From an uncultured Gammaproteobacteria bacterium (lineage in GTDB: Bacteria; Patescibacteriota; Microgenomatia; Daviesbacterales; UBA10151), in assembly GCA_964360965.1 (NCBI GenBank), contig CAYHYM010000017.1, positions 1 through 6,864 of the forward strand: a stretch of DNA of 6,864 nucleotides. Reading direction: 5' to 3'. The notes under the pieces were generated by a model. The model saw nothing but the letters and a program-made list of their open reading frames with translations. It was not told the DNA's origin and searched no databases. Positions 3,456 through 3,928 of this stretch are shown in pieces (position 1 is the first letter of the stretch; every line of letters starts with the position of its first letter). A program made the position numbers and the translations under genes.

Positions 3456-3545
3456 GGTGGGATGCAAGAGCGGTTTAATTGGCGATCCTGGAAAGATCGT
3501 GTGGGGGCAACTCTACCGTGGGTTCGAATCCCACTCCCACCGCCA
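3456..3545 (+). tRNA. tRNA-Ser (anticodon GGA), class II with long variable arm, CCA encoded
   Basis: The sequence reads GGTGGGA-TG-CAA-GAGCGGTTTAA-TTG-G-CGATC-CTGGAAA-GATCG-TGTGGGGGCAACTCTACC-GTGGG-TTCGAAT-CCCAC-TCCCACC-G-CCA. It has the 3-bp D stem typical of Ser tRNAs, an 18-nt variable arm and a G73 discriminator. Confidence 0.9.
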
Positions 3546-3591
3546 CGTAAGAACGTTAATTTTGTATTACAAAATTTTACGTTCAACGTGG
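3543..3591. repeat. Imperfect 49-nt palindrome that starts in the CCA end of tRNA-Ser(GGA)
   Basis: The left arm is CCACGTAAGAACGTTAATTTTGTA (3543..3566) and the right arm is TACAAAATTTTACGTTCAACGTGG (3568..3591). The shared blocks are CCACGT, GAACGT and ATTTTGTA with small internal mismatches. ACGT occurs four times. Confidence 0.6.
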
Positions 3592-3593
3592 CT

Positions 3594-3638
3594 GTCGCGT
3601 TTAAATCTCTGATTTATTACGCGACGCCTTTTGATTTT
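3594..3638 (+). terminator. Candidate intrinsic terminator downstream of tRNA-Ser(GGA)
   Basis: The stem is GTCGCGT (3594..3600) with ACGCGAC (3619..3625). An inner extension TAAATC/GATTTA surrounds a TCT loop. This is followed by GCC-TTTT-GA-TTTT (T tract 3629..3638). Confidence 0.45.
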
Positions 3639-3652
3639 GGGTATGTTCTATT

Positions 3653-3928
3653 ATGTATTATGCTTACGTTCTACGCAGTTTGAAGAGTGGAAGTTTGTAT
3701 ATTGGATATACTGCAGATTTAAAGAAAAGGTTTAAGGAGCACAATAATGGACAAAATATCTCAACTAAGCCATTTATGCCCTACAAACTAATCTTTTATG
3801 AAGCATTTTTAAACAGAATTGACGCCAAAAATAGAGAGGAATATTTAAAAAGTGGGTACGGTAGGAAAACATTAAAGACAATGTTAAGCAGATATTTTCA
3901 ACCAGGCACCGCTATAAAACTCTTTTAA
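3653..3928 (+). CDS. Small standalone GIY-YIG nuclease family protein (YhbQ/UPF0213-like), 91 aa
   Basis: YYAYVLRS...GSLYIGYT carries the GIY and YIG motifs. It is followed by KKRFKEHN and NREEYLKSGYGRKTLKTML. By eye it is roughly 30% identical to the 57..323 product. Its 3' end overlaps the convergent 3912..5087 gene by 17 nt. Confidence 0.85.
   Translation: MYYAYVLRSLKSGSLYIGYTADLKKRFKEHNNGQNISTKPFMPYKLIFYEAFLNRIDAKNREEYLKSGYGRKTLKTMLSRYFQPGTAIKLF

Follow-up and report, generated by a model that had tools for sequence, protein, structure and literature searches.

Why very small nuclease genes should lie directly against tRNA genes is the question raised by the 6,864-nt stretch of DNA studied here (the window), which is the entire contig C17 of a 628-kb genome of the candidate phyla radiation (CPR) type, assembled in 22 contigs and with about 39% GC. 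The window carries two mini GIY-YIG nuclease genes, the focal gene downstream of tRNA-Ser(GGA) and a paralog, copy 1, that runs into tRNA-Asn. The reading that we favour, with some reserve, is that the two open reading frames (ORFs) encode the proteins of small selfish cassettes, which insert at tRNA genes, are maintained there and are passed on horizontally. They appear to belong to a widespread and apparently undescribed CPR/Patescibacteria family of cassettes of about 350 bp, made of a nuclease of about 85 residues and hairpins; our full-text literature searches found no published description of mini GIY-YIG genes welded to tRNA genes. In what follows C designates contigs of the window's own genome, G the genomes of relatives and L fetched loci (L176 and L177 being metagenome contigs); all the genomes compared are metagenome-assembled. 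The tRNA genes were called by ARAGORN, whose "Ser(act)" labels are doubtful. The genes at issue are the following.

3..77, minus strand: tRNA-Asn(gtt), intact, directly downstream of copy 1
57..323, minus strand: copy 1, paralogous mini GIY-YIG gene, 88 amino acids (aa), PF01541
3456..3545, plus strand: tRNA-Ser(gga), intact, the sole copy found in the genome; anchor and putative target of the focal cassette
3653..3928, plus strand: focal mini GIY-YIG nuclease gene, 91 aa, catalytic domain only, PF01541
5486..5572, minus strand: tRNA-Ser(cga), a Ser target of the window left unoccupied by any cassette
5597..5669, minus strand: tRNA-Arg(gcg)

Two single-domain GIY-YIG nucleases

Both ORFs match PF01541 (E 1.7e-14 for ORF 3653..3928, with 54 bits against a cut-off of 22.6, and E 3e-15 for ORF 57..323), and no second Pfam domain scores above its cut-off in either of them. 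The two proteins are 35% identical (E 8e-12) and both keep Y5, Y16, R26, H30 and E62, that is the GIY Tyr, the YIG Tyr and the conserved Arg, His and Glu, as expected from the earlier claim, made from the sequence alone, that they are paralogs. Among 31 homologs Y5, Y16, G18, R26, H30 and E62 are invariant. The focal protein shows the motifs, conserved residues and strand/helix order of the PF01541 superfamily, and in its AlphaFold model (pLDDT 85) strands and helices follow the beta-beta-alpha-beta-alpha order expected for a GIY-YIG core. The folds nearest to this model are UPF0213 protein BH0048 and the Slx1 nuclease domain (TM 0.5-0.67), the I-TevI catalytic domain being a weaker match (TM 0.44), and the best sequence match to a protein of known structure is PDB 1ZG2 (E 2.4e-6). 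TIGR01453 aligns with residues 5-39 only (22.5 bits, cut-off 56). A phage origin was considered and rejected, as the focal protein has no PHROG match and one weak phage tblastn match only (39%). Both nuclease genes are under purifying selection, the ratio of non-synonymous to synonymous divergence (dN/dS) being 0.05 for the focal gene compared with its homolog in L177 and 0.11 for copy 1 compared with its counterpart in G010.

The start of the focal ORF (3643-3662) resembles a 10-nt tandem duplication (ATGTTCTATT / ATGTATTATG); homologs begin with ATG TTY TAY TAY (MFYY), and in the window that first ATG is out of frame, the functional frame running from 3653. At its 3' end the ORF overlaps the convergent gene for a 391-aa protein by 17 nt, and its C-terminal tail QPGTAIKLF (3895-3928) is absent from homologs. 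A 15-mer from this tail, TCAACCAGGCACCGC, recurs in L177 about 70 nt beyond the stop codon, which suggests that about 80 nt were lost internally and that the ORF was thereby fused to cassette DNA lying downstream. In L176 the nuclease gene is directly followed by another small ORF (88 aa), and a similar frame begins at the same place in L177.

The genes are associated with tRNA genes in one clade

The sequence-only reading had counted a nuclease gene at two of the four tRNA loci of the window and had argued from this for a recurrent association rather than a recent duplication. The count stands: exactly 107 nt separate the 3' end of tRNA-Ser(GGA) (3545) from the focal ATG (3653), copy 1 overlaps tRNA-Asn by 21 nt, and each gene is on the strand of its tRNA. 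In the whole genome, which has 39 tRNAs, a six-frame search yielded eight mini GIY-YIG ORFs of 82-94 aa, four of which lie within 150 nt of a tRNA, all on the same strand as that tRNA: the two on C17, one on C11 between tRNA-Phe and tRNA-Gly, and one on C9 after a tRNA-Arg/tRNA-Lys pair. Joining C5, which ends in tRNA-Asp, to C12 through a 55-nt overlap adds a fifth copy, 134 nt after tRNA-Asp (5/8). Under random placement 0.24 copies are adjacent on average, and four were reached in none of 20,000 trials; among ORFs of 150 aa or more, just 5.5% are that near a tRNA (binomial P 5e-4 for four copies, 2.4e-5 for five).

The census was extended to 20 relatives of the same family or class, in which 75 mini GIY-YIG genes were found and about 9 kb on each side was run through ARAGORN. 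There, the distance to a tRNA is at most 150 nt for 38 of the 75 genes and at most 300 nt for 41, of which 37 are on the strand of the tRNA. The density of tRNA genes at these loci is 1.19 per kb in the flanking 0-300 nt, compared with 0.03-0.12 per kb farther out; it is about 0.07 per kb at 3-9 kb, so that the density near the ORFs is about 17-fold that found a few kilobases away. Because the control distances were taken inside the same loci, any genome-wide effect of tRNA or gene density is removed. A tree of the 75 proteins separates two clades, each with 97% support. Clade A, which holds both window proteins, has 32 of its 36 members adjacent to a tRNA, while 27 of the 39 members of clade B are not, and an 18-member group within clade B contains the copies found on C3 and C10 of the window's own genome. 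The link with tRNA genes is thus statistically strong and confined to one clade, and the claim of a recurrent association is supported by this restriction as well as by the enrichment, against random placement in the genome and against internal distance controls in the relatives.

An ancient vertical linkage, or chance in a tRNA-dense window, with the two ORFs as old paralogs, is an explanation to which we give almost no weight. It is contradicted by the census statistics, both in the own genome and in the 20 relatives, and by the finding of clade A sister proteins at different tRNAs, for example Ser(tga)/Arg(ccg) or Asp/Gly/Ala. Copy 1 and tRNA-Asn are linked in G010 too, about 5.5 kb from rpoD, and some vertical inheritance is therefore possible; but the patchy distribution of the cassettes, the empty syntenic site and a cassette divergence far below that of the hosts, all described below, again speak against it.

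The choice of target was analysed in the focal subfamily, defined by a scan with the focal protein alone over one genome per species, which gave 80 loci from many Patescibacteria lineages at 52-78% identity. Of 72 evaluable loci, 53 are at most 300 nt from a tRNA, all 53 co-oriented with it, and in 46 of these the tRNA is upstream of the nuclease gene. The neighbour is a tRNA-Ser in 39 of the 53 (tga 12, gga 10, gct 10, cga 4, "act" 3) and a tRNA-Asp in five, while distant members (52-57% identity) adjoin Gln, His, Pro, Met, Asn, Glu or Leu tRNAs. Since all Ser isoacceptors are used across the subfamily, the nuclease follows the type of tRNA rather than a single inherited locus.

A twin hairpin is joined to the tRNA at a fixed nucleotide

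Between tRNA-Ser(GGA) and the focal gene lies a structure that, like the interrupted tRNA-Asn fragment near copy 1 (332..373), the sequence-only reading had overlooked: a twin hairpin occupying 3542..3625. The parts of the focal cassette, and the promoter-like site ahead of its tRNA, are listed here.

3417..3445, plus strand: promoter-like site TTGTAA-17-TATAAT, 10 of 12 consensus matches, 10 nt upstream of tRNA-Ser(GGA)
about 3542..3928, plus strand: focal cassette, twin hairpin and nuclease gene, joined to tRNA-Ser(GGA) at position 73/74
3542..3592, plus strand: hairpin 1, arms GCCACGT / ACGTGGC, the 5' arm starting from discriminator G73 and including the CCA end
3594..3625, plus strand: hairpin 2, GTCGCGT..ACGCGAC, with GCC and a T-rich stretch after it

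Folded as single-stranded DNA (ssDNA), the segment 3536..3652 gives -30.6 kcal/mol (z = -8.3). The 75-125 nt that separate tRNA and ATG have a single architecture across the focal-subfamily loci: hairpin 1 has the consensus stem G-C-N-N-C-G-T / A-C-G-N'-N'-G-C, in which positions 75-76 (CA, AA, AG or CG) covary with the far arm, hairpin 2 has the consensus stem GGGACGT..ACGTCCC with many compensated variants and ends in (C)GCC, and in most loci the ATG follows hairpin 2 after 0-15 nt. Hairpin 1 begins at position 73/74 in 29 of 29 aligned loci. The junction between tRNA and cassette is thus fixed to a single nucleotide, and the hairpins covary: for 28 proposed pairs in the 29-sequence alignment, 98.6% of the cells are paired, compared with 35-47% when the partners are slid, 15 of the 28 pairs show changes on both sides (117 cells), and none of 500 shuffles matches the observed values. 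The hairpin 2 helix by itself is 98% paired, with compensatory changes in four of its seven pairs. G-U cells are rare (about 7 of 807), which is only a hint that the pairing is that of DNA, in both strands. With a covariance model (R1) built on the twin hairpin, one site is found in the own genome and, in the 20 relatives, one strong further site, after tRNA-Ser(CGA) in G020; because so few sites are found, the hairpins are to be seen as part of the cassette and not as a dispersed repeat. On the other side of the gene, no conserved sequence was found downstream of the ORFs across the aligned focal-subfamily loci, a tRNA-Ser 3' fragment sought downstream of the focal ORF scored at the null level, and no meaningful direct repeats bracket the focal cassette. 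Hairpin 2 was also considered as a plain terminator and rejected, as its T-run, present in the window, is absent in most homologous loci and the scan calls no terminator.

The scan of the segment between tRNA-Ser(GGA) and the focal ORF found no promoter-like or terminator-like motif, and the site at 3417..3445 is the sole promoter-like site on the plus strand ahead of that ORF. Because the cassette is always co-oriented with its tRNA and has no promoter of its own, we infer that the focal gene would be expressed by read-through from the tRNA promoter, the tRNA being left intact.

An organization of this kind might also be expected of a domesticated host function, tied to tRNA genes or to tRNAs and made from a tRNA-mRNA co-transcript in which the hairpins would be RNA processing or regulatory signals. 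The nuclease could then resolve structures at busy tRNA genes, guard tRNA 3' ends, where islands and prophages usually integrate, or modulate recombination or transformation in the manner of SsnA, a small GIY-YIG nuclease discussed below. The strict co-orientation (37/41 in the relatives, 53/53 in the focal subfamily), the absence of a promoter motif between tRNA and ORF, the position of the ATG at the foot of hairpin 2 in most loci, the strong purifying selection (dN/dS 0.05-0.11), the presence in G020 of hairpins kept without the ORF, and the effect of SsnA on transformation at the level of its host (PMC11893778) are all in line with such a function. However, compensated stems nearly without G-U cells fit pairing of both DNA strands better than pairing as RNA only. 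A host function is also at odds with the copy number of 0 to 14 among close relatives, the frequent truncated or stop-containing copies, the empty orthologous site in G001 and G009, the signals of horizontal transfer for both the focal gene and copy 1, and the displaced tRNA fragments, which indicate insertion events. A tRNA-directed function, the other option left by the sequence-only reading, is therefore less favoured, and we regard it as rather unlikely.

Copy 1 is of an upstream type with displaced tRNA fragments

Copy 1 lies on the other side of its tRNA. It has no stop codon of its own: its last six codons and its stop are encoded by the 5' part of tRNA-Asn, the ORF ending at a TAG in the D-loop of the intact tRNA. 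Part of the same tRNA is found again beyond the start of the gene.

332..373, minus strand: displaced tRNA-Asn 5' part (acceptor strand and D-arm), upstream of ORF 57..323

Read on the minus strand from 373 to 332, this fragment consists of TTCCTCGGTAGCTC, a palindrome and GTAGAGCGGG, the AATG of the D-loop being swapped for the palindrome CTCCGCCAGCTGGCGGAG (342..359). The copy 1 unit is also present in G010, with 86% DNA identity, the same layout and unrelated flanks on the upstream side. More generally, about 12 of the relatives' 41 tRNA-linked ORFs have cognate tRNA fragments on their far side, and the layout occurs at at least 10 other tRNA genes. The displaced 5' fragments are always interrupted by GC-rich palindromes (for example CCCCGATTAAATCGGGG, CTCCGATGGCCATCGGAG and CCTGYCTGCCGRCAGGCAGG), and upstream-type stop codons repeatedly come from a conserved tRNA TAG, formed by U8-A9-G10 in four loci and by positions 19-21 in three.

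These properties bear on the idea of a passive safe harbour, according to which insertion would be near-random and the genes would survive only beside tRNAs, where compact genomes tolerate them and read-through is available. The genomes are indeed small and gene-dense, other small accessory genes fill tRNA flanks (an example is the ORF found at the same site in G001), and clade B copies with hairpins of the SRM type, described below, are located elsewhere in the genome. Nevertheless, passive retention predicts neither a hairpin 1 that starts at 73/74 in every aligned locus, nor a subfamily specific to tRNA-Ser and to some tRNA-Asp, nor far-side duplicates that come from the cognate tRNA, nor an upstream type that repeatedly takes its stop from the conserved tRNA TAG (positions 8-10 and 19-21), and we consequently find this explanation improbable.

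The palindrome that disables the displaced tRNA-Asn fragment, TCCGCCAGCTGGCGGA, has six copies in the genome, only two of them at GIY-YIG cassettes, and the genome has 49 perfect GC-rich hairpins, compared with 6-11 in shuffled sequence.

Sites of TCCGCCAGCTGGCGGA: C1 62457, C2 56743, C4 29486, C11 3717, C17 342, C21 2417

Signs that cassettes are gained, lost and transferred

The region of the focal cassette is syntenic in G001, where dnaG is 59% identical, tRNA-Ser(GGA) 90% identical and the 391-aa gene 49% identical. The site is empty there: neither hairpins nor a GIY-YIG gene are present, and what separates tRNA-Ser(GGA) from the homolog of the 391-aa gene is a different small ORF. In G009, too, the orthologous site is without the cassette, and in none of the 20 relatives does a GIY-YIG gene adjoin tRNA-Ser(GGA). 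The small ORF in the G001 slot (L153, G001:C55, 1592-1900; MNKQALITQNPKILGGKPIIAGTRM...) resembles by eye a protein of the DUF433 type; judged from the sequences compared, the tRNA-flanking slot is one that turns over accessory genes.

The nuclease encoded by L177 is 94% identical to the focal protein (89% at the DNA level), although the adjacent tRNA-Ser(GGA) is only 68% identical; that of L176 is 84% identical, with a tRNA-Ser(GGA) 71% identical to that of the window. Both genes follow their tRNA-Ser(GGA) with a twin hairpin in between. The neighbouring genes in L176 differ from those of the window, and L177, 655 bp long, contains no other gene. Similarly, the synonymous divergence (dS) between copy 1 and its G010 counterpart is 0.60, while rpoD is saturated at dS 2.8, both proteins being 85% conserved. 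At the sequence level, cassettes are thus far more alike between hosts than are the adjacent tRNA or a housekeeping gene. Near-identical nucleases beside diverged tRNAs, the empty syntenic site and the use of all Ser isoacceptors support the proposal, one of the options of the sequence-only reading, that tRNA genes are insertion or homing targets.

Copy number varies from 0 to 14 per genome among the 20 relatives, and truncated or stop-containing mini GIY-YIG copies are frequent. In G020 (L178, G020:C7, about 1214-1311) a twin hairpin follows tRNA-Ser(CGA) without a nuclease gene, and in L124 (2999-3231) a nuclease gene minus its first six codons and the hairpins is fused to the 3' end of tRNA-Ser(GGA); from their sequences, this ORF-less hairpin and this hairpin-less gene look like products of cassette decay. 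Of the seven 55-nt contig overlaps, three lie in tRNA genes or in a hairpin that follows one, and two of these three are at GIY-YIG cassettes; close metagenome homologs are mostly on very short contigs. Assembly graphs seem to branch at tRNA/cassette junctions, which may reflect polymorphism in the population.

Contig-end overlaps at tRNA sites: C5/C12, C15/C17 (window left end), C14/C9

Comparison with known systems

The closest parallel is SsnA of Neisseria meningitidis, a single-domain GIY-YIG ssDNA nuclease associated with the NTS/SRM hairpin repeats (Chenal et al., 2025, PMC11893778). The cut made by SsnA in ssDNA lies a few nucleotides to the 5' side of its own hairpin, and the enzyme is inactivated by mutation of Y6, Y17 or E64, residues with which the conserved Tyr5, Tyr16 and Glu62 of the focal protein line up; its authors remarked on an architecture like that of insertion sequences (IS), and tRNA is nowhere mentioned in their paper (PMC11893778). 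The two systems share a domain-only GIY-YIG protein, about 90 aa long and with identical catalytic residues (Tyr, Tyr and Glu), and a gene coupled to conserved DNA hairpins; the 91 aa of the focal protein, whose homologs are 83-96 aa long, fall in the range of about 90-100 aa typical of single-domain Ssn proteins. Cleavage of ssDNA at a specific site beside the hairpin, with no activity on dsDNA or RNA, is characteristic of the Ssn family. The systems differ in that Ssn genes typically have SRM hairpins on both sides and many dispersed copies of these, whereas the focal hairpins are on the 5' side only, undispersed and welded to the tRNA 3' end. In the 75-protein tree a branch with 97% support separates the focal protein, in a sister clade, from the SRM-flanked copies. 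No match to the published SRM pattern was found within 300 nt of the focal gene, nor does it match hairpin 1 or 2. The own genome does hold two units, not linked to tRNAs and flanked on both sides by hairpins of type GTCATTCCTGCGAAAGCAGGAAT, whose sequences have the canonical Ssn/SRM-like arrangement.

C3 29338-29622 and C10 23676-23957: SRM-like mini GIY-YIG genes, hairpins GTCAT(T/C)CC.GC....GC.GG(A/G)AT

Among the hairpins flanking these two genes, the published SRM pattern fits only the one downstream on C3. Searched genome-wide, the published regular expression gives three sites, compared with 0-4 in shuffled sequence, and was not retained; a simpler SRM-like pattern gives 19 sites, dispersed over the own genome.

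T-even phages have free-standing GIY-YIG homing endonucleases, SegB among them, that likewise sit among tRNA genes; the Seg proteins, of more than 200 aa and with a DNA-binding domain, are products of phage genes that are preferentially inherited and patchy between relatives (PMC2330249). The focal gene resembles them as a free-standing GIY-YIG gene among tRNAs with a patchy distribution. It differs in encoding a protein of 91 aa with no second domain, hence without the N-terminal GIY-YIG plus C-terminal DNA-binding architecture of homing endonucleases, in belonging to a cellular CPR genome, and in its position-73 junction and twin hairpin. A homing endonuclease cleaves the allele that lacks its gene and is copied in during repair, with co-conversion of flanks and a patchy distribution as the outcome; for the cassettes, patchiness, an empty site and transfer are seen, and the focal cassette is without downstream homology.

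Slx1 and UPF0213, of the URI type (PDB 1ZG2, 6SEH, 7CQ2), provide the best fold and sequence matches of the focal protein. The substrates of Slx1 are branched and flapped DNA, in keeping with a hairpin or junction being recognised by the focal nuclease; unlike the latter, Slx1 has an additional zinc-finger domain and a partner, Slx4. To our knowledge, UPF0213 proteins have no known function and no reported linkage to tRNAs. The best reading of the focal protein is as a relative of the Ssn/SRM and Slx1-like nucleases, the nuclease of the focal type of cassette, 83-91 aa long, being of UPF0213/Slx1/Ssn type.

The cassettes further resemble IS200/IS605 and REP/RAYT elements, which are small and hairpin-ended, have a short target sequence specified by a hairpin, and give rise to gene-less hairpin derivatives. 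These elements, however, use an HUH/Y1 transposase and have subterminal hairpins at both ends, while the focal cassette has a GIY-YIG nuclease and hairpins at one end; we know of no strand-transfer chemistry for GIY-YIG enzymes. The focal cassette also has neither the integrase nor the att repeats of a tRNA 3' part that characterize tyrosine-integrase elements. More broadly, the ORF list and profile searches of the window proteins revealed no integrase, transposase, recombinase or intron in the window, and the sequence-only reading was right in placing the two genes in no recognised element type.

A model for insertion at tRNA genes

By analogy with SsnA, the nuclease would bind its own hairpin as single-stranded or extruded DNA. 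Its cut, a few nucleotides to the 5' side of the hairpin, would fall at the tRNA/cassette junction, and the cassette would then be copied into unoccupied tRNA genes by repair or recombination that takes the conserved tRNA as homology. For the upstream type, represented by copy 1, we infer a mirror image of this process at the 5' half of the tRNA, which would rebuild that half and leave the displaced copy disabled by a palindrome.

Several points weigh against this scheme, or against the selfish nature of the cassettes. No tRNA-Ser fragment or repeat was detected on the downstream side of the focal cassette, and a homing-type repair would therefore have homology on one side only. The comparison with an empty site is between genera and not between strains. 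The conservation of such short proteins could partly reflect strong constraint, and the synonymous counts come from about 47 sites only. The twin hairpin could be active not as DNA but as RNA, when a tRNA-mRNA transcript is processed, and given the tRNA-Ser of G020, which has the hairpins minus the gene, the hairpins may have a separate role. Because the focal type lacks far-side homology, a hairpin-guided single-strand route is equally possible for it. In its boldest form, which we put forward only tentatively and consider on balance doubtful, our proposal is that an 85-aa nuclease and a twin hairpin of about 85 nt make up one of the smallest autonomous mobile elements: the enzyme would read DNA shape and a few bases, recognising its own hairpins together with a tRNA-Ser-type acceptor end in single-stranded or extruded form, and would nick at 73/74, after which the cassette would be copied into unoccupied tRNA genes across Patescibacteria without integrase or transposase.

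tRNA genes are classic landing sites of islands and prophages that carry an integrase. On the reading that we favour, a far smaller agent, a mini nuclease gene with hairpins, would occupy tRNA sites with single-nucleotide precision in much of the bacterial tree; if nicking and copying take place as proposed, this would be a third route for the targeting of tRNA genes, beside integrases and classical homing endonucleases. Mobility of the cassettes would add to the recently described Ssn-type single-strand nucleases a defined genomic target, either the 3' or the 5' part of a tRNA gene, would explain many annotations as "hypothetical GIY-YIG" or "excinuclease C" as well as many breaks of CPR contigs at tRNAs, and would provide compact nucleases, directed to their targets by both structure and sequence, that might be tried as tools. 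The specificity of a GIY-YIG domain without a DNA-binding module, a question of long standing, becomes directly testable.

Other features of the window and genome

A very GC-rich imperfect nested palindrome (GCCTGTCTGC..GCCGGACAGGC) lies at 3335-3400, between the start of dnaG and the tRNA-Ser promoter. It is missing from the orthologous spacer of G001, and its outer arms resemble the palindrome by which displaced tRNA-Leu fragments are interrupted in G003 and G010; the fold of the GC-rich region 3325..3410 is not convincingly better than that of shuffled sequence (z = -1.95). Genome-wide k-mer enrichment gave no usable signal, AT-rich and coding bias being dominant, and the motif GTCGAAGG, with 48 copies in the genome, was set aside as not clearly above expectation.

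The 24-nt spacer ACTTCGACTACGCTCAGTGTAAACTG (5573-5596, minus strand), which leads from tRNA-Arg(gcg) to tRNA-Ser(cga), has a motif in common with the leader on C11 (ACTTCACTACGTTCAGTGTAAACTG) that runs from tRNA-Phe to the GIY-YIG gene there, and similar motifs are also found after tRNA-Ala(cgc), tRNA-Lys(ctt) and tRNA-Leu(taa). Just 6 nt separate the two genes of the same Arg(gcg)-Ser(cga) pair in L176. From its sequence, the spacer 5573-5596 may be an ORF-less hairpin footprint.

The remaining genes of the window are rpoD, dnaG, the gene for the 391-aa protein, that for S-adenosylmethionine decarboxylase (AdoMetDC), and a HicA toxin gene with an upstream ORF.

within 6356-6863, minus strand: HicA toxin gene (PF07927, E 8e-12) and an overlapping upstream ORF that has no family match

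The upstream ORF is cut off by the end of the contig; together with the HicA gene it probably forms a toxin-antitoxin pair of the HicAB type.

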